Of a stretch of DNA of 64,000 nucleotides, positions 14,877-32,430 are shown in pieces. The stretch comes from Candidatus Thorarchaeota archaeon (GTDB lineage: Archaea; Asgardarchaeota; Thorarchaeia; Thorarchaeales; Thorarchaeaceae), in the NCBI GenBank assembly GCA_963726195.1, contig CAVSBO010000003.1, positions 832,001 through 896,000 of the forward strand, in the 5' to 3' direction. The stretch's first letter is position 1; every line of letters begins with the position of its first letter. The translations under genes were made by a program, and so were the position numbers. The notes beneath the pieces are model-generated. The model was given only the letters and a program-made list of their open reading frames with translations. It was not told the origin of the DNA and did not search any database.

Positions 14877-14905
14877 ATGGTTGACTGTTTATGTCTCCTT
14901 CTGCC

Positions 14906-15092
14906 GTTCATTGTGAGTTGGACAAAGTTGGACACAGGAGTCTTCGTCCGCCCAGAAACGGCACTGGGCTCAAACTCCTTGAGGTCAGGTTCGTGTCGCT
15001 TCAACCTCAATGACTGAATTCCTCATTGAGGCTTATGTACTCCCACAGTTTCATGTCCATGTTTGTCCAGATTCTCGGCAGCTGCCGCTGAA
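14906..15092 (-). mobile_element. 187-bp non-autonomous IS607-family mini-element (MITE-like) related to the 22972-31116 element
   Basis: Minus strand: GG|TTCAGCGGCAGCTGCCGAGAATCTGGACAAACATGGACA...AGCCCAGTGCCGTTTCTGGGCGGAC...TGTCCAACTTTGTCCAACTCACAATGAAC|GG. Both ends match the large element, with GG at 15093-15094 and 14904-14905. Confidence 0.88.
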
Positions 15093-22262: not shown

Positions 22263-22971
22263 GTGATGCACTCATCAGAATCGAATACCGACAGACGATT
22301 GAGAATCAGCCATGGTCGCACTTGCAATTGCCCTCCGAATCACATCAACTGCCTGTCGGCCAAAGAGTGGATTCAGCATCAGATTGCTGTATGGGAGTTC
22401 TACTACGAGGCACGGGATGTGAGGGACAAGAACATTCATCCAGCGACCTATCCCATAGCACTTCCGTCAAAGTGCATATCTCTGTTCACTCATAAGGGTG
22501 AACTGGTGCTGGACCCATTCGTCGGTGTGGGAACAACACTCGTCGCAGCCAGAGACCTCGCACGCAACGCAGTCGGGTTCGACCTAAAGGCGGACTATGT
22601 CGATTTCTCCAACAAGCGGCTGAGCTCTATGTCGGACAATGAGACAACGCAGATTGCATTGTGCGATGACGCTCATAACATACCTTCGTACCTTGAGGAG
22701 GAAACTGTTGCCGTCTGTGTGACATCTCCGCCCTATGCAAACCTCCTGAATCGCCGCAGACAGAACAAGAGTATGAGGGGCAATCTCAGGAAGGATGAAT
22801 ACTATCTCAAGGTACAGCAGTATTCTGACGATCCGAGGGATTTGGGCACCATGGATGCCGAGCCCTATGCGAAAACGCTAGGTGAAATCTTCGGTGGCAT
22901 TCTTCCTTTAATGCGACATAGAGCACACTGTCTTGTCAACATAACTGACTACTGGTGGGAAGACAGAAGGG
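22263..22971 (+). pseudogene. N4-mC/N6-mA DNA methyltransferase, 5' part (interrupted by IS607-family element)
   Basis: HPATYP, DPFVGVGTT (motif I), TSPPY (motif IV). The frame runs into the element left end after DYWWEDRRV. Confidence 0.9.
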
Positions 22972-22989
22972 TTGACAACAGCTGCCTAG

Positions 22990-23009
22990 AAGTTGGACAA
23001 TCTTGGACA
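22990..23009 (+). repeat. Left subterminal repeat: two TTGGACA motifs at 10-bp spacing
   Basis: TTGGACA at 22993-22999 and 23003-23009; 19/20 identical to the reverse complement of 31088-31107. Confidence 0.9.
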
Positions 23010-23048
23010 CCACAGAACTGAAGAGCCGCAGCGCGACTGACACGATGC

Positions 23049-23675
23049 ATGTTGAGTGTGTCAGCAGCTGCGGTCAGGGTTGGGGTCTGTGCAAAAACCA
23101 TCCGACGGTGGGACGACAGGGGTCTTCTCCGATGTTTCAGGACCCGAGGTGGTCACAGACGAGTGCCTCAGTCAGAAATTGAACGAGTCATCTCAGAAAG
23201 GGAGCCGAGAGCAGATTCTCATATGACCTGCTCAAGAGCAACAATCGTGTACGCACGAGTATCGTCCCACGGGCAGAAGGCCTCAGGTGACCTTGACAGA
23301 CAGGTCGGCGAACTGCTCGCAAGTTCTGGCGAGGCATCTCCTCTTGTCCTCCCTGACGTCGGCTCCGGACTCAACATGAGGCGCAGGGGTCTATGGCAGC
23401 TGATACATGCTGCAGAGAGAGGACTCGTCAACCGGGTGATTGTCACTCACAGGGACAGACTGGCCCGCTTCGGGACCGAATTGATTGAGCATATCCTCTG
23501 CCTCCATGGCGTGGCCGTCAATGTCCTTCACGAGAACCGGGACATGACTCCTCAGGAAGAAGTGGTCGCCGATCTGATAGCACTAATTGCATCGTTCTCC
23601 GGACGTATCTATGGGCTTAGAGGTGCCATCCTCAGGGCCACAAGAGACCCGCTCAGACAAAGTTCTACTTCTTGA
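23049..23675 (+). CDS. tnpA: IS607-family serine recombinase transposase
   Basis: N-terminal MerR-like HTH (KTIRRWDDRG...TRGGHRR), catalytic YARVSS, DVGSG, THRDRLARFG, IASFSGRIYG. Confidence 0.95.
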   Translation: MLSVSAAAVRVGVCAKTIRRWDDRGLLRCFRTRGGHRRVPQSEIERVISEREPRADSHMTCSRATIVYARVSSHGQKASGDLDRQVGELLASSGEASPLVLPDVGSGLNMRRRGLWQLIHAAERGLVNRVIVTHRDRLARFGTELIEHILCLHGVAVNVLHENRDMTPQEEVVADLIALIASFSGRIYGLRGAILRATRDPLRQSSTS

Positions 23676-23692
23676 AAAGGGACGCGGTCCTC

Positions 23693-23731
23693 CTCACGAT
23701 TTCTCTCCAGCCCCGGTGGAGAGACCGTGGG
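23693..23731. terminator. Hairpin between convergent tnpA and cargo gene
   Basis: TCTCTCCA (23702-23709) / TGGAGAGA (23717-23724), extended by CTCACG/CGTGGG; terminator function is inferred. Confidence 0.4.
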
Positions 23732-23784
23732 CTTCAAGCTGTTTCTCTACTGCGTTTTCGGTTTTTCCGTCTTGAAACCTTGCG

Positions 23785-26700
23785 TCACTCCTGATTTCCA
23801 GAAGCTGCACCCTGTTCATGAGCCTTCCGGACATCTCTAACCACATCAGGGACCTGCTTCCTCAATACCTCGCCAAGGTTCTCAATGCTCTGGAGTCGAG
23901 GCACTATTTCGAGCTCCACAGCCTCTCTTACTTCTCGCACCGCTTGTTGTACACCTTCGCCGAGCAGGATCTTCGGGTCATCATAGAGCATTCCCGATGC
24001 TGTACGAGTTCCATCGGTTTCTTCACTTACCCAATAGATTGCCTGATTCTGAGAATACAAGGTCACTGTCCACGTCGCTGGCTCCTCCGCGAACTCTTCA
24101 TCATGGCGACCAAGGTGTGTTCCAGCATGATTCAGCCAAGATGTCACTCGCCTGATGAACTGCTGTTTGTTCCTTATGGAGAAACCGCTCATCTCGCCCT
24201 CTCTCATGCTTTCCCTTAGCATGTCTACGACTTCCTCGGCATCCTCTTCACTCTCAATCTCTATTGTCCGTGACAGGAGCGGCTCACGTCGACCCTGTCC
24301 GATAGGAAAGACAGCATATGTACAGCTTGTTTCAGACAGGTCAGAGAGCCGTAGTTCACAAGGTGGGCTTCTTGCCGAGTACCCATGTCCCTTGAGTTCT
24401 GACAGGATTCGCTTCCTGAGCGCTCCGTACTCCTCTATTGCATTCATTGGGATCCGGGACGTGATGACATTCAATATCCTCTGGCACTCTTTCTCCGCGC
24501 CGTGGCCGTGCACCAACTCGATTGTCTGGGGAGTTTCCGTAAGGAATAGTCCTGTGATTGTCGACTGTGCTTGCCACTCGACATACTTCGGCTCTGTACA
24601 TGACAGGCCGACCAGCCAAGTCTGTTCTCTCACTCTCAGATAGGTTCCGGGCTCTAGAGGTTTCAATGACAGACCGTTCCTCCGAAGGAACATGCGGACG
24701 TACTGCTCCTCATGATACACCACGCTTTCATCTTCCCCAGAACCCTAGGCATGACGATGGCAAGTCTGTACAATCGCCCTGCATAGACTCTCCCTGGGGC
24801 AAGGAGCCCATTCACAGCTTCTCCGGTCATCGGTCTTCCAAGCTGTCGCTTTACTTGATTAGGACAGTCTGGCGGCAATGATATCCGCCAGCAGGCACCG
24901 TGATCGTACTCCTCACTATAGGGCGATGGGACAGATCGACTGGTCATGTTCAATGCTCACCTTGAGGGTCCCGGCCTCTTCGAAGAACCCGGACACTCGT
25001 GCAGGGAGTTCCTCCACCTCAGTTCGTGCAGCCTTGAAAGTGACATATGGTCCAATGAAATCCAGTTCTCCGTACACGATATCATCGAAGACACTCCAAG
25101 TGACGTACGTGCCCGAGTCTGTGTACATGGGTCCTGAGTTTGTCATAGGCCATCTGAGGAGTGAAATGAGTTCTGCCGTGTATTCCACGTTCACCTCTTG
25201 GAGGATTTCATCATCGCCATCAACGAACCTAACTTGGCAGACATTATTCACCATCTCAAGACGCACACTGACAGATGCTGGTCGCGTGACAGCCTCGATG
25301 TACCTACGCAGAGAGGCTGCCACACGTTGGTAGAACGACTCTGGTAGTTTCGTTCCTTGAGAAGCTTCAGTAACAGAGGGCTTAGTGAAGGACTGTCTTA
25401 TGGCACGGAGATGACGGACTGATGAGTGCCCCTGTTCCACCAGCTCGAGGACTCCCGAGTAGACTCTCTCATGATCGTCCGTTTCCATGCTCCATGTTTC
25501 CAGCCCCTGTTCAGTTGGTCTGAATTCCATTAGGACTTGTGAGGACCCGAGAATCTCGTCGGGTGTCTGTTGTGTTAGTACCTCTTGTTTGGTCTCACTC
25601 CAGAGGAGCCCCTCCTTGTCTGGAGACTTGCTCATGAAGCAACCAATGAGCATGCGGGCCTCATTCTCGGGGTCCTGCATGACAAGCCACCAGGGAAGAG
25701 CAGTCTCATCCTCCGGTAGAAACCTGATTCCAAACGTCAGTCCAGCCGTCGTTCTTTCACTGGAAGTGACAAGCTCCACTGTCTTTGGAGGAAATGCAAC
25801 AATGGTTCCTGGCCTTGTCTTCAACCTATTGGGTGAGCGGTAGAGCCGCTGGGAATTGATTCTACCCAGGGTCGTGGCCACGTACCCCTTGCCGGCCCCT
25901 GTCTCAGGGTGTCGGTAGCGCACAAGGTCAAGGACACTTGGAGTCTTGGCGGGAGGCCCATCAAGAACTCGTACTTCGAAAGTCAGGTCATCAGGGGCTC
26001 CTCTGAACTCATGCATGACTGCGTCGAACCGTTCCTTGATGCTCTCTTTCGAGTCATCTGAGAGCATCTTGTCAGGCCACAGGCAGACAAGCCAAGGGAG
26101 CAAGGTCATCGAGAGGAGCCTTATCCTGCTGCGAGTAGCCTTGTCGGGTACGATGTCGTCCAGCCCTCTCTCCTGCACAACGAGTCCCTTCCCTTGGTTC
26201 TTGAACCGCCTTGACCAGCCCCTCAGCGGAGGTACGAGCACGAGCTCAGTGTTCATGTCTTCGGGAGAATGGCGAACGACTACTCGGATATCATCATGCA
26301 TTGGTGAGTCCCCGATGACTGGCAACCCACATTTCTCAGGCTCGACAGCATTCCTTGGTGCCACAGGTAGGTTCCAGACAATCTCAGTGACGACCTCAGC
26401 AAGAGATGAATTGTCATAGAATGGGAGAAGGGCTCTGGTTGCATATGGGACGGACTTCTCGGAAGAGGGCGTAGGTGCATCGAACCACAGGACCGTCGTC
26501 TTCTTGTTGTCTGGAAGACTGTCCAGAAGCTGGTCCATTACGACCTGTAGTCTATCTCGGTGGCTCTCCGGAGTTGCATCTCGCAGGGTATCTGCCCCCG
26601 TCACGATGACTATTGTGTGGCTATTGATGCCCTTGTCCAGCTCGAACGATGGTATGTCTCCACCCTCATAGAGATATGATAGGATTTCGTCAAGGCGCCC

Positions 26701-28745
26701 TCTAACCTCTATGCCTTGAAAGAACTCTCGAATATGGTCTGGTTGCGTCTTCGCCACCTCGTCATCAGAGTATCCTCTTGGCCTTAGGCGAAGGCGTGCC
26801 TCTGCAAGGTGGGGCTCAGTGAACTGACTTGCAAGGTCAAACCAAACAAACCGTGCACCGAGGTGGCTCTCTTTCATCTCATAGAGCATCTGAAGCCCAT
26901 GATAGTTCCGTGCATTCCAGGCGGCGGACTGGCCTGCAGATGTCGGGGATCTCCCTACAAGATAGAGAATGAATCTTCGTCTGCTCTCTAGGCTCTGCTG
27001 GAACGGGTTGTAGAGTGGTTTCCACGGGACGTCAATAGCCTCTCCCCCCTGCTTCTCAGGAACGACTTGCTCATGAATGATCAGAGCGACTCTGCTATTG
27101 CTTCCTCCAATAGGCCTGATGGCCGTTCTTTGAACTGCTCCACTCATCTTCTTGATGGATTCATAGGCCTTTACCAATAGCCCTTCAATGGTTCGTCTGG
27201 CTTTATTGATATCAGTAATGGACTCGATGACTATCGTTCCTCTTGGCACGTACCTTGGCTCCAGCCCAGTGGCTTCATGGTATCTCTCAGCCAGCGCTTG
27301 TGCATAGACCTCTACTTGTCGCTGTGCAGATGCGCTGGGAGCGGATTTGACAATGGCGTCCCATTCTTTGTCCTCAAGAGTTCGGTCTTCAACGGGTAGC
27401 TCAGCAACAATACGGGGAGGAAGCCCTCTATGCAATCTGGACTCAGATGATTTCTCTTCAGCATCAATATGCCACTGATGCCCCATGCGGGTCTTGATCT
27501 CGCAGACGAATGCTGGTCTCCAGAGGATTTGTTTCCCGTCAGCTGTGATGATCCTCTCTAGAAGTAGAATGTCCACTTTTCCCAACCCGGACTCAGTCAC
27601 TATCGCCAGCTCTGACACAATAGCATACTCAGAGGCCCCTACATACCTATGTCCATTGAAGATGACGTCATTCAGATGCCATGGGCTGGGAAAGAGGTCT
27701 GATATCCTTCTGTGCATTATCGACCCCTTTAGTTTCGCTCGACTGGTTGCCTGCTGTCTGATGTATTCGACATCAGCTTTGGTTAGGCACGGTTCTTCAA
27801 GACCGGGCGTTCTAATGAAACCCCTCTGTGTCAGTCGTTCAAGCTCTTGAAGAGCAGGATGATTGCCATAGAATGTCAGTGCTTCGTCGAGCTGGCTCCG
27901 AAAGAAGTCGAAGGACGTATTGGATGCTCCATGTTCGAAGTCCCCCATCACGCTCTTGGCCGCTTGCATCGTGGGGTGATACCCGGACTCTGAAATCAGC
28001 TCTTTCACTCTTCGAAGAGCAGCGTTCGCCCCCTTTCTGAACTCTGGTCTCCCACACTTGTGCTCTGAGTAGATGTATTCAAGATAAGGTCGTACAAGAA
28101 GGAGAAGGAGATTGCAGTACTTGGTGGTCTCGCTCACAGGCACATCACAGATTGTGCAGTAGGTGGCAAGATACTCACCATGACTCCGAGCAGCATCACC
28201 AAAGTCCATAGAGGGAAGGTCAGGATGCGTGAGCATGACTCGTGGCCCGAAGGAGGACCCCTCGTATCCTGCGACTCTAAACTCTTTTCTGTGAGATCCC
28301 GCTCGCACTGTACGTGTTCCAAATTGAGTGGCATCAGGAAATGGGAACTCTCTCTGTGAGAACTCTCTGAGGGTAGCACCACATGCATTAAACCGCTGGT
28401 TCAGAGGACCCACAGTGCCATCAGGATTCTTCTGTCTGGAGACCTCAGTATGCCCAAATTCAGCAGCCTTCTCATAGAGCATCTTGAGCATGTTGTTCCT
28501 GATTTGAGGTTCAGCCTTGAGAACGGACGAGCAGTCAGGGGTACCTCGTTCCTTGCTCAGAAGATAGACGTGTCGAGTCTCTGCCAAATCTCGTAGGAAC
28601 TCCAGTAATGAGCACAGGTCAGTCTGTTCTTCATGCTACATTGGAGTTTCACCGTCGAGGCAAGCCCTGTCCGCAATGCAGCTGACATGACACGTTCTGG
28701 ATGAACGGGTAGTGGCCGAACAGGACGCCCTCTTGGCCTTGCCAT
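23785..28745 (-). CDS. Giant cargo protein (~1,650 aa) with RecB/Cas4-type PD-(D/E)XK nuclease and degenerate RecA-like region; three frameshifts (~28637, ~24917, ~24735)
   Basis: ORFs 28557-28745, 24916-28587, 24663-24953 and 23785-24723 join seamlessly with single indels. Motifs: GSIMH, SELAI, GKVDILL, CEIKT, QRQVEVY. Confidence 0.75.
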
Positions 28746-28955
28746 CTCACTGATAGGATGGCATTGTGATATTTAAGTTCATTTTTTGGAAGTAACAGGC
28801 GCGGAACTCAGGTATCAAGAACTGGCTTGTTTCATAAAATCTGCCCCTTCTTCTTTATCAAACAAAAGGCTAACCTTTTACTCTGGTAATTATACGTCGC
28901 TTGCTTTTGTATGCCCTTATATCCCGACTTCAGCACCAATATGCGGTAGAGGCTG
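28746..28955. promoter_or_regulatory. AT-rich divergent promoter region for cargo gene and tnpB
   Basis: Clearly AT-richer than the flanks; TATA-like TTAAAT on the minus strand near 28770 and CTTATAT near 28918. Confidence 0.5.
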
Positions 28956-31087
28956 ATGAAGAGACAACCCCGGCGTCATCCCCGGGCGCCAAACCATGAC
29001 GTACAACAGGCAAGGCAACAAACAATGGATGATAATTATACGTCCTCTTCATCCACTTACCAAGCCGAGAAGTTCTCTCTCAACTCATATCCTAGAATTG
29101 TCGATCGAAAGGGAAAGAAAAGACGACCTGACCCTTCCTTCTCCGCAACACACAGACCCCCCGTCGAACAAGCACTAAGGGAGCTTGTCAGCGGCAACAA
29201 GTGCTCTGACATCGATATCCAGACACTTGAGCAGCACTTCGACAAGTATCTCAATGCAGTCAATCTCGTACTTGATGAGGTATACTCTGCTTCCGATCGC
29301 GCCCAGCGTGTCGGAGAGCGATTGCGCTCTTCAAGAGGACAAGGCTATGTAGTACTAAGAGAAGAGAACTTTCTAGAATGGAAACCGGACAACAGGTTCG
29401 GACAACTAGTCTATGAGCGAATGTATCGTAATGTCCTTGAGACCGCAGCCCGCATCGTGTTGGCTGACTACACGCGCAGGACACTGGTCAACTCACTAAT
29501 CACGATGCTGGCGAGTGATAGGCAGCAACTCAAGTCGCTCATGGCTCTCAAACGAATCCCTGCTCCTCTTGTCAGAAAGCTGCGAGCGACAGTCGGTGAA
29601 ACATCTGGTTCGTACTATCACTACGCGCTCACGGCATGCAAACAGCTTCGAAGAGCACTCGATGAACACCTCCTTGAGAGCTTCGGCGAGTCCACATCCA
29701 TCCGAAGACTAGCAAGGGACCGAGTTCGCGACCTTCTCGATACTCAATCGTCTGAATCAATCAAGGCCATGAATGCAACACTCAAGAAAGTGCAGAAATG
29801 GCACAAGACCGGTTTTCCATTCACTGCTCCCATTTTCAGACAAACCACCATGGACTTTACTGCATCTACTGAAAACACAACAGGACAAGGGTACTGGTTC
29901 ATGGAGGACTCCGAGCGACAGGACGAGGTTATCCTGTATATCAAGACCCCTCCCGGGGTCACAGGTCGTCAAGCCACGCCTGATTCACCGTACAAGAGCC
30001 AAACTCTTCGATTCAGGTTCCTCGACTGGTTGCCCCGAAAGGCAGCCCGTGCTCACAAAAAGGCAGAGGAGTCGAAAGCTCACGGTCATTTCAGCAGGGC
30101 CGTGGAGTCTGAATATCGTGCTGCACGCTTTGACGATATGACCCAACAGCTGAGGAACAATGTCAGACTGCAGTGCCTGAATAGACAACTTTCTTCTCTG
30201 AAGTCCAGAAAGGACATCGATGGAGAGAGGGTCAATGAACTGAAAGCCCAGATAACGGCGCTCAGACAGACCAGAAGGTGTGCCCCGCCCATCCTCAGTC
30301 TGCGAGGACACACTGCCACACTCATTATTCCCTTCCTATGCCCTGACAAACAGATGCTGAAACGAGTGCTGCCAACAGTCCCAAGGACAGGCAGGGCAGG
30401 AGTCGACCGGGGTCTGAGATATCCGGTGGTCCTCTCAGTAAAGAACGGTGCAAACAGTATGATGAAACAAAGATAGGAAGGCCAGAGTCATTCGAGAGAC
30501 GCGAGAGGCTCAGACAACGTACACGAGTCTTGATGTCACAGATCGTGCGACGACGGAACAACTGGGACAGGAAACGACCGATGCTGTCACCTCCGTCCTC
30601 TATTCTGAAACGGGAGAGAGAGCTGGAGGCAGTGTGGGCCAAGGTCCGACGCATCGACCGAGAAATCTCCCATCAGCTGGCCGCTGAGACCGTCTGGTTC
30701 TGTGAGCATCGTGGTGTCAAGACTGTCTACTTCGAAGACCTACGGTACTTCCAACCACAGGGCGGGTTCAAAACTCATTCATGGGAGCTGTCAACCAACC
30801 TCTGGGGGAAAATCATTGAAGGGGTCCGATATCGCAGACAGGCCCTAGGTCACAAGTACGGTGGAGTATGGACTGTGAACCCAGCCATGACATCCCAGAG
30901 ATGTAGTACCTGTGGTGAGAAAGGAGTGCGCGTCAGAGACAGTGATTCCACAGAGGAGGAGCACGGTGGGGAGTTCTTCTACTGCCCGAGCTGTGACCTC
31001 AAACTGCACGCAGACGTGAACGCGGCCAGAAACATCCTTATGATTCAACAACCCAAGCCCAGTGCCGTTTCTGGGCGGACTGCTTGA
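28956..31087 (+). CDS. tnpB: Large TnpB/Cas12-like RNA-guided endonuclease (~710 aa), one frameshift near 30452
   Basis: RuvC-I GVDRG (D484), RuvC-II YFEDL, VNPAMTSQRCSTC...CPSC zinc finger, RuvC-III HADVNAARNI. The downstream frame is open from ~30452 (QYDETKIGRPESF...). Confidence 0.88.
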
Positions 31088-31118
31088 TGTCCAAGTTTGT
31101 CCAACTTACAATGAACGG
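31056..31118 (+). ncRNA. Putative 3' part of TnpB omega/re-RNA scaffold (hairpin plus terminal pseudoknot)
   Basis: GCCCAG/CTGGGC stem; loop CCGTT is complementary to terminal AACGG; the 25-nt block is identical in the mini-element. The 5' boundary cannot be defined from sequence. Confidence 0.6.
31088..31107 (-). repeat. Right subterminal repeat: two TTGGACA motifs (inverted) at 10-bp spacing
   Basis: TGTCCAA at 31088-31094 and 31098-31104. Confidence 0.9.
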
Positions 31119-31294
31119 TTCCTGCTCACATGTATGTCATCAATGCATTGCAGGATGTAGGGTACGAACTCCGTAACATAATCATCTGGGACAGGCAGAA
31201 CATAGTGAACCGTGCTGGCATCTTCGGGTGGCCCAACAATTACATCACTCTCAGCACGACCTTCGAGTACATTGTTGATTTCTGGCGTCCATGA
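31119..31294 (+). pseudogene. DNA methyltransferase, 3' part
   Basis: PAHMYVINALQDVGYELRNIIIWDRQN...TTFEYIVDFWRP-stop, typical of N4/N6 MTases (IIW, EYI); in frame with the 5' part after element removal. Confidence 0.9.
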
Positions 31295-31351
31295 TGAGCC
31301 TCGTCAGTGACAAGCCACAGGTCACATGATTTGATTGACATGACAGGATTC

Positions 31352-32430
31352 TCAGATTCCGAGAATGGGAAATACCAATTCCTTGACCTTTCGAACTGTT
31401 TCGCGCACGGTCATCCATATTTCTGCATCATCCTTGAAAGGCGGCTTTTGCTTGGGAGGAGAATACTTGCGACCTGACAAGCACGGATATGACCGTGGCC
31501 ACACCCCAGCACAAAGAGTCTGGATGGTACCCTCCGCCCGTCACTACTCCAAGTCGACCGTCACTCCACTTGTGTGCTGCATTGTGTATTCTCTCTGCGA
31601 TGTATCTTATCATCGTCGTCGTCAGTTTGAGGTGCGCTAGGCGATCCAGGTAATGTGCATCAAAGCCGGGCAGAAACAGGATGAACTGAGGACGAAAGAA
31701 ATCGACCAGCTTCGGGACCAGCTCGTCAAAGGCATATCTGTATACTCCATCGCCCGCGTCCATCGGAAATGGCATATTGATGTTGTAGCCGGAGCCACGA
31801 CCAGAACCGACCTCGTTCACGTACCCTTCGTGAGGGTACATCCATTCAGGATCCTCATGGAAAGAGATGACCATGACCTCCGGATCGTCGTAGAAGTACG
31901 CTTGGTCCCCATTTCCGTGGTGGACATCGAAATCCGCGACAAGTATTCGATTCAGACCATTCTGTTTGAGCTCGCTAACAGCGGCCGCGATATCATTGAA
32001 AACACAGAAGCCACCACCCTTATCGAACTTGGCGTGATGAAAGCCGCCGGTGGGAGACATAAAGTGCTCCACGCGTCCCGACATGATTGAGTGGACTCCA
32101 GTGACGGTAGCACCGGACAAAACTAGAGCATTCTCGTATATTCCTCTGAAACCCGGCGTGTCTATGTCAATCTCACCTTGGCCGGTCTCAGAAATCGTTC
32201 TGACCTTCTCAATGTATTCGGAGGAATGCACGCGCTCGAGAATGGGCACAGGAAGAGACTCTGCTTGTCAGCTCAGTTACGTTCTGAGATGCAAGCAGCC
32301 CGGCCGAATCCAAGAAATCCCTGATCATTCTGAAACGCCCGGGTCTCAATGGGTGCCGGTCACCATAGTCAAAACTGTCGAAGACCGGGCTCCACATGAA
32401 GCCGACTTGGCAGTCTCTCCTCGGGATCAC
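31352..32430 (-). CDS. Histone deacetylase/AcuC-family protein, two frameshifts
   Basis: HPLRPGR (upstream frame), GGFHHA, GFCVFND, DFDVHHGNG, GFDAH, GGGY; C-terminus continues in another frame to 31352. Confidence 0.85.

Follow-up and report, generated by a model that had tools for sequence, protein, structure and literature searches.

The last 62 nt (31057-31118) of an 8,147-bp IS607-type transposable element in the genome of a Candidatus Thorarchaeota archaeon very probably form the 3' module of the guide RNA (right-element RNA, reRNA, or omega RNA) of a TnpB-family nuclease. The element lies in the window analysed here, a stretch of 64,000 nucleotides (positions 832,001 to 896,000 of contig CAVSBO010000003.1) from an assembly of 2.9 Mb in 19 contigs that is 89% complete (GCA_963726195.1); coordinates are those of the window and features are on its plus strand unless stated otherwise. 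At the right end of the element, the module comprises two consecutive stem-loops and a 16-nt tail ending in GAACGG. Specifically, in stem-loop A (31057-31076), GCCCAG (31057-31062) pairs with CTGGGC (31071-31076) to give a stem of 5-6 bp around the 8-nt loop TGCCGTTT (31063-31070). Within this loop, CCGTTT (31065-31070) is the 5' strand of a pseudoknot whose 3' strand, GAACGG (31113-31118), is formed by the final 6 bases of the element: CCGTT is the reverse complement of AACGG (31114-31118), and the sixth pair, T31070 with G31113, is G-U in the window and C-G in most relatives. Stem-loop B (31077-31102), recovered both in the minimum free energy fold and by RNAalifold, starts directly 3' of stem-loop A and is enclosed by the pseudoknot strands, with GGAC (31077-31080) pairing with GTCC (31099-31102) and an inner stem of CTTG (31083-31086) and CAAG (31092-31095). 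An earlier reading of the bare sequence (hereafter, the original prediction) had located the stem, the loop, the AACGG terminus and the overlap with the last codons of the tnpB-like gene (PSAVSGRT) precisely where they are found. The loop-end complementarity that it reported is real, but the resulting pseudoknot is 6 bp long, not 5, and encloses a second covarying stem-loop of which the prediction made no mention.

A lone 6-bp stem with a 5-nt complement is unremarkable, and the significance of the module comes from its recurrence and covariation. Folded as a single sequence, the final 179 nt of the large element show no exceptional stability (z = -0.71), so that folding energy alone would not support the module. 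An exact search for the 20-nt hairpin gave two matches in the window, 31057-31076 (+) and 14950-14969 (-), and none in shuffled sequence; the second copy was recovered by a pattern search and by BLAST, and was missed by a repeat search with a 12-nt seed and a 30-nt minimum. Across the genome, BLAST and a covariance model retrieved 24-25 copies of the module, including 4 at the ends of long tnpB-like genes, a few fragments and ~15 copies residing in mini-elements of ~190 bp. The module accompanies the tnpB-like gene at its 3' end, both in the window and in three further full-length copies of the same genome, and does so as well at loci of relatives (L025-L043); among 80 loci from other Thorarchaeota, 70 gave a match at the end of the gene. 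Over 100 related transposon ends of Thorarchaeota conserve the hairpin and its pairing with the element terminus.

Covariation among homologues, which the original prediction had put forward as its own touchstone, is strong in both the hairpin and the pseudoknot. In a first alignment (A1) of 37 ends, drawn from the window genome and 20 loci of relatives, the hairpin is paired in 93% and the pseudoknot in 96% (95.9%) of cases, with changes on both sides in 7 of the 12 pairs; sliding the 3' partner by 1-3 columns lowers the pairing to 29-49%. A second alignment (A4; 71 sequences) was obtained by running on 80 independent loci a model (R1) that encodes the hairpin only and so cannot favour the pseudoknot. 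Here the pseudoknot is paired in 94.4% of cases and its covariation score is 0.308, as against 0.117 for shuffles (none of 500 reaching 0.308) and 0.02-0.12 for slid partners. Over both alignments, hairpin and pseudoknot pairing amounts to 93-96%, compared with 23-50% for the slid controls, and 26-50% for those of the pseudoknot. Compensatory changes affect three to four of the six pseudoknot pairs (pairs 1, 4 and 6). In A4, pair 6 is C-G in 29 sequences, G-C in 24, U-G in 8, U-A in 4, A-U in 2 and unpaired in 5; pair 1 is C-G in 52, U-G in 7, U-A in 6 and A-U in 1; pair 4 is U-A in 53, U-G in 6 and C-G in 1; and pair 3 is G-C, with G-U in two sequences. Several single loci have changed two or three pairs together while keeping the complementarity (TCGTTG/CAACGA, CCGCTA/TAGCGG, ACGTTC/GAACGT and TCGTTT/AAATGA). 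Within stem-loop A, pair 2 is C-G in 36 sequences and U-A in 34, and never unpaired, and the loop-closing pair is G-C in 57 and C-G in 13. The outer stem of stem-loop B is paired in 96.8% of cases over 71 ends, all 4 of its pairs varying on both sides (for example, GTAC/GTAC and GCAC/GTGC), and its inner stem is a feature of a subfamily only (69%). A tree inferred from 900 nt of upstream sequence, outside the tested columns, requires ~21 state changes for pseudoknot pair 6 (19 and 15 for its two columns taken singly); for hairpin pairs 2 and 6, it implies 9 and 5 changes, coupled in every case. The covariation signal therefore stems from many events and not from one inherited change. One mini-element (C5:228181), considered as clean proof of a 5-bp pseudoknot, was dropped when three relatives turned out to carry the same loop change uncompensated, and the case for the pseudoknot accordingly rests on the larger data set.

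This pattern could be envisioned as conservation at the level of DNA only, the right end then consisting of recombinase sites (the TGTCCAA repeats), the GG crossover and the last tnpB codons, with the hairpin and the loop-end complementarity as by-products. The left end of the element was traced via an inverted motif, TGGACAATCTTGGACA (22994-23009), that mirrors TGTCCAAGTTTGTCCA of the right end, as expected of recombinase sites, and recurs in the left ends of the mini-elements; the two repeats are probably binding sites of the recombinase. In addition, the hairpin encodes a conserved peptide (S-A-V-P/S-G-R-T), and the final GG is the crossover dinucleotide typical of IS607 (PMC10711439). However, binding sites and codons conserve sequence and do not yield compensatory double changes, whereas the loop covaries with non-coding bases ~50 nt away through many independent events. 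Furthermore, in the codons for S-A-V-P/S-G within the hairpin, GGG to GGA at a third position goes together with CCC to TCC at a first position across the loop, a coupling for which protein coding does not account, and the gene-less mini-elements keep both pairings, including two compensated variants (GCCCAA/TTGGGC and CCGCT/AGCGG). A purely DNA-level origin of the structure thus appears improbable.

A role of the structure in terminating, stabilising or translationally controlling the tnpB mRNA, in place of a guide scaffold, is an alternative that we regard as very unlikely. The tnpB-like frame of the window does run through the module (K-P-S-A-V-S-G-R-T-A-stop, with the TGA at 31085-31087), and in several homologues the stop codon falls inside or after the structure, which lies at the very end of the gene. 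Yet the stems are followed by no U run, the mini-elements keep the structure without any gene, and the structure always ends exactly at the element boundary while the stop codon shifts by up to ~45 nt (in the 12 homologues with an intact frame, it lies 4 to ~45 nt before the boundary). In IS608-type ends, the DNA guide is located 5' of the hairpin foot and not in the loop, which speaks against a third possibility, namely a single-stranded DNA transposition signal akin to the subterminal hairpins of IS200/IS605, with the loop-end pairing serving as a DNA 'guide' that places cleavage. This last possibility is scarcely tenable: G-T pairs are tolerated in DNA hairpins, and the genome holds many ordinary tnpB genes, so that IS200/IS605-type elements are probably present, but the element carries a serine recombinase, IS607-family enzymes move double-stranded DNA (PMC10711439), and GG(TT) junctions with scarless excision are the IS607 pattern.

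The boundaries of the element (22972-31118) and its scarless empty site are fixed by a natural empty allele. The element interrupts a gene for an N6/N4 DNA methyltransferase (5' part 22263-22971, 3' part 31119-31294; PF01555, E=1.5e-21), whose orthologues in relatives are uninterrupted and 293-317 aa long. The left junction reads GACAGAAGGG/TTGACAAC (slashes marking junctions; the flank ends in AGAAGGG) and the right junction GAACGG/TTCCTG, and each boundary may slide by up to 2 nt owing to the GGTT that the junctions share. When the flanks are joined, the methyltransferase frame continues (DYWWEDRRV/PAHMYVINAL), and a genome of the same genus (G002) holds the uninterrupted gene, 88% identical at the DNA level and aligned without gaps across the junction. 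The empty site AGAAGGG/TTCCTGCTCAC of the original prediction, with a left flank ending at 22971, is therefore correct. Near the left end lies tnpA (23049-23675), encoding an IS607-type serine recombinase with a MerR-like helix-turn-helix followed by a resolvase domain (PF00239, E=5.7e-17, together with PF12728, PF13411 and PF00376). It is the only copy of its type in the assembled genome, compared with ~15 mini-elements with matching ends, so that the large element is the likely transposase source, or master copy, for the mini-elements. The GG crossover dinucleotide, the lack of a target duplication and the scarless excision (GGTT junctions and the G002 allele) are all traits of IS607; the compact layout of tnpA and tnpB only is not found, the element spanning 8,147 bp and tnpA being separated from tnpB by a cargo gene of at least 1,223 codons.

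The flanks of the element provide a candidate target-adjacent motif (TAM) and a predicted guide. The left flank ends in GGG (22969-22971), which contains the GG crossover dinucleotide, and the left junctions of the element family in this genome show GGG in 14 of 15 cases and AGG in the remaining one, usually with A before it, which is consistent with a GGG TAM. The predicted guide, TTCCTGCTCACATGTATGTC (31119-31138), is the right-end flank, with one exact match in the genome; a few 16-nt near-matches to the flank exist, none of them preceded by GGG. A functional guide length of ~16 nt is probable, judging by the 16-17 nt of flank conserved at the tRNA-Lys loci described below. The base at position +1 after the right end is always a pyrimidine (T55/C15 at 70 loci of A4, T17/C6 in this genome), and the rest of the flank is unrelated between copies. 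This pyrimidine could reflect a target preference of the recombinase or a scaffold position; in ISXfa1, the fixed flanking base belongs to the scaffold, so the guide would start at either 31119 or 31120.

At seven loci of relatives (L061:5059-5180, L055:5059-5260, L071:5174-5330, L075:5068-5190, L079:5156-5330, L062:5053-5260 and L089:5174-5330), conservation extends for 16-17 nt past the right end (CCAGTGGCTTAGCCAG and variants thereof), after which the sequences are unrelated. The opposite strand carries a tRNA-Lys(CTT) gene 45-130 nt beyond this conserved flank. The start of the tRNA gene, GGG/CCGGTGGCTCAG, resembles a TAM plus protospacer, with 3-7 mismatches to the flank. These loci could represent an old insertion into a tRNA-Lys copy, of which a guide-length piece has been retained by selection, or a nuclease with a fixed guide.

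Under the guide-RNA reading, transcription leaving the element would add ~16-20 nt of flanking DNA to the module as the guide. Scarless excision by the serine recombinase would recreate AGAAGGG/TTCCTGCTCAC, in which the GGG would act as the TAM in front of a perfect target. Both occupied junctions differ from this target, the right one having CGG in place of GGG and the left one matching the guide for only 2 nt, and would be spared. If the empty site were cut and then repaired from a sister copy in which the element persists, the element would be restored, and it is along these lines that we infer, with the original prediction, that the nuclease may cut only the excised allele and enforce retention. 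The copy in the window and the gene-less mini-elements would rely on a nuclease made in trans.

The nuclease itself belongs to the TnpB/Cas12 superfamily. The tnpB-like gene of the window (28956-31087; ~710 codons; PF07282, 54.6 bits) contains a one-base frameshift near 30447-30457 and a stop codon at 30474-30476, which split it into open reading frames of 506 and 185 aa, with all catalytic motifs present across the two pieces. The frameshift could denote a real pseudogene or, alternatively, a consensus error or mis-assembly in this metagenome-assembled genome. Of three more long tnpB-like copies in the genome, that on contig 16 has an intact frame of 722 aa. Within the same taxonomic family, 15 of 24 genomes carry homologues of 707-731 aa, 44-61% identical; none of 16 genomes searched outside that family yielded a long tnpB-like homologue, and homologues also occur at 80 loci of public Thorarchaeota/Promethearchaeota assemblies. 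In the 12 homologues with an intact frame, D489, E598 and D691 (RuvC-I, -II and -III) and two CxxC motifs (four cysteines, zinc finger) are invariant. Profiles recognise only the C-terminal third of the protein (PF07282, a TNB domain, at 52-55 bits, above its cut-off; NCBIfam guided_TnpB falls short of its cut-off of 100, with 61 bits), and ~480 residues precede RuvC-I. An AlphaFold model (mean predicted local distance difference test score, 70) retrieved Cas12f, Cas12m/g, ISDra2 TnpB, ISFba1 TnpB and Fanzor2 in Foldseek, at low template modelling scores. An ordinary TnpB has roughly 400 aa, and at ~715 aa the protein is unusually large for a transposon TnpB. A PF13454 match in its N-terminal part (24.9 bits) was rejected as spurious: it falls in a long helical region and is missing from the contig 16 homologue.

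Several observations weigh against a functional guide-RNA module at this locus. The nuclease gene of the window is frameshifted, which is why this copy, like the gene-less mini-elements, would depend on a nuclease acting in trans. Such action is itself uncertain, since the closest paralogue with an intact frame shares only 47-61% identity and has a right end that finishes in GA, not GG. No relevant Rfam match was obtained for 28500-31400 at E<=10, the sole match being a chance long non-coding RNA, and the module thus stands as a separate sequence family. The RNAalifold analysis and an all-pairs scan of 72 aligned gene ends revealed no covarying helix upstream of stem-loop A, and the covariation-supported structure spans only the last 62-75 nt. 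Of 71 sequences, 11 lack pseudoknot pair 4 and 5 lack pair 1. G-U mispairs outnumber A-C mispairs by ~37 to 15 (the outermost hairpin pair being left out), so the sense strand is weakly favoured and this asymmetry is weak support for RNA. Finally, the sequence conservation is explained in part by the other roles of these bases, as coding sequence, as probable recombinase sites and as the crossover site.

The module resembles, in its design, the reRNA of ISXfa1, an IS607 element of Xylella fastidiosa. The ISXfa1 reRNA is ~150 nt long and crosses the right boundary of an element with a GG crossover and a GGG TAM; its activity requires a pseudoknot that joins an apical loop to the guide-flanking bases, being lost on mutation and partly rescued by a compensatory change (Yoon et al. 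2023, PMC10711439). The module likewise overlaps tnpB at its 3' end, terminates with the right end and joins a loop to guide-flanking bases in a pseudoknot, and the two elements also share crossover G bases within the scaffold, a GGG left flank, a serine recombinase and a scarless GG crossover. By contrast with ISXfa1 and with ISFba1, whose TnpB uses a RAGATH-18-derived reRNA (PMC11061315, PDB 8iaz), the family described here lacks a sequence or Rfam match and has a 6-bp pseudoknot, a supported structure of 62-75 nt (as against the ~150-nt ISXfa1 reRNA), a nuclease of ~715 aa, an 8.1-kb element with a giant cargo gene, an Asgard host and a +1 base that is always a pyrimidine. ISDra2 TnpB, of the IS200/IS605 group, has a related protein fold (E=7e-4), and its omega RNA (PDB 8h1j) shares the guide-adjacent pseudoknot, the scaffold located in the gene end and right end, and the flank-derived guide; unlike the element studied here, ISDra2 has a Y1 transposase, transposes as a single strand and encodes a much smaller protein. 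The TAM of ISDra2 is of the TTGAT type.

Closer to the present host are the Asgard aCas1-associated TnpB loci (groups Cas1H-Asgard-1 and -2), in which a variable region follows a single conserved T downstream of tnpB (Altae-Tran et al. 2023, PMC10691335). Similarities include a TnpB restricted to Asgard archaea, a large partner gene and the T or C that always follows the right end here; on the other hand, the element in the window carries a serine recombinase, the giant gene has no match to Cas1 in sequence searches of Pfam, NCBIfam and PDB, and the downstream GTTCACTCA motif of PMC10691335 did not stand out in 70 flanks. The retention model and the gene-less PATE elements that encode omega RNAs were described by Meers et al. 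2023 (bioRxiv 10.1101/2023.03.14.532601). The mini-elements are comparable to PATE elements in being gene-less, in keeping both ends and the predicted guide-RNA module, and in that they would need a transposase and TnpB in trans; they differ in deriving from an IS607-type element, PATE elements belonging to IS200/IS605, and in that a long stem can form between their left and right ends.

Taken together, these comparisons describe a known RNA design in a new sequence family, a new host group and an unusually large nuclease and element. As the design was already established, our results extend current understanding and do not change it. They offer a base-level, covariation-backed prediction of the scaffold end, the pseudoknot, the GGG TAM and the guide start for large TnpB-like nucleases confined to Thorarchaeota, a family for which no RNA was described in the literature examined, and make this family directly testable; they also extend the IS607/Fanzor branch of RNA-guided nucleases by an archaeal example, and the natural empty allele displays the exact site that the guide would recognise. 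A broader scenario, tentative and in our view rather unlikely, is that, in this clade of Thorarchaeota, the scaffold shrank to a module of ~62-75 nt (the two stem-loops and the pseudoknot) while the nuclease gained ~300 N-terminal residues, representing an intermediate between TnpB and Cas12-like enzymes in which protein replaces RNA scaffold. In such a scenario, each mini-element would amount to a complete guide-RNA gene, acting in trans and exploiting the nuclease to secure its own retention, and the tRNA-Lys subclade would have a fixed guide and possibly be domesticated.

The giant cargo gene of the element (23785-28587, minus strand) is made up of open reading frames of 312 aa (23785-24723) and 1,223 aa (24916-28587) and lies head-to-head with the long tnpB. 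Its counterpart on contig 16 (L021:1190-6316, minus strand) is a single open reading frame of 1,708 aa, the two genes being 26% identical, and a third homologue is located at C16:218888-221232 of the window genome (G000). Sequence-level searches returned no Pfam, NCBIfam or PDB match for the giant protein, including none to Cas1. Units of 7.6 kb comprising a giant gene and a long tnpB occur at G000 C16:21557-29171 and C8:106585-114200; they are 88% identical to each other and end exactly at the right end. Neither copy has a tnpA, and no left end was found for them, similarity stopping without the TGGACAA motif. A gene with a histone-deacetylase domain adjoins both the unit on contig 16 and the element of the window (31428-32249).

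The mini-element of the window (14904-15092, minus strand; 189 bp) has the same left end and the same 3' RNA module as the large element (hairpin 14950-14969), and no gene. As the original prediction held, its hairpin and last 6 nt are identical to those of the large element, and its spacer is 4 nt longer. Its fold is more stable than expected (z = -3.29), owing largely to a pairing of left end with right end that is not possible locally in the large element. The mini-elements of ~190 bp share with the large element the left end T..GC..C AGCTGC .. TGGACAA.CTTGGACA. An outer stem of the mini-elements, AGGAGT/ACTCCT, shows one compensated variant, is absent from the full-length copies and was not counted as part of the common scaffold. 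Some mini-elements are paired, two standing in tandem at G000 C8:162252-162594 (right ends 269 nt apart) and two head-to-head at G000 C3:337131-337716 (~200 nt apart). Three mutually complementary segments, CCTCAATGA, TCATTGAGG and CCTCAAGGA, allow alternative folds in the mini-element of the window (14990-15045, minus strand) and in others. The mini-elements also contain an AT-rich box (TACATAAG, TTAAATAG or CATATAAG) ~95-100 nt before the right end, which could be an archaeal TATA box for a transcript of their own.

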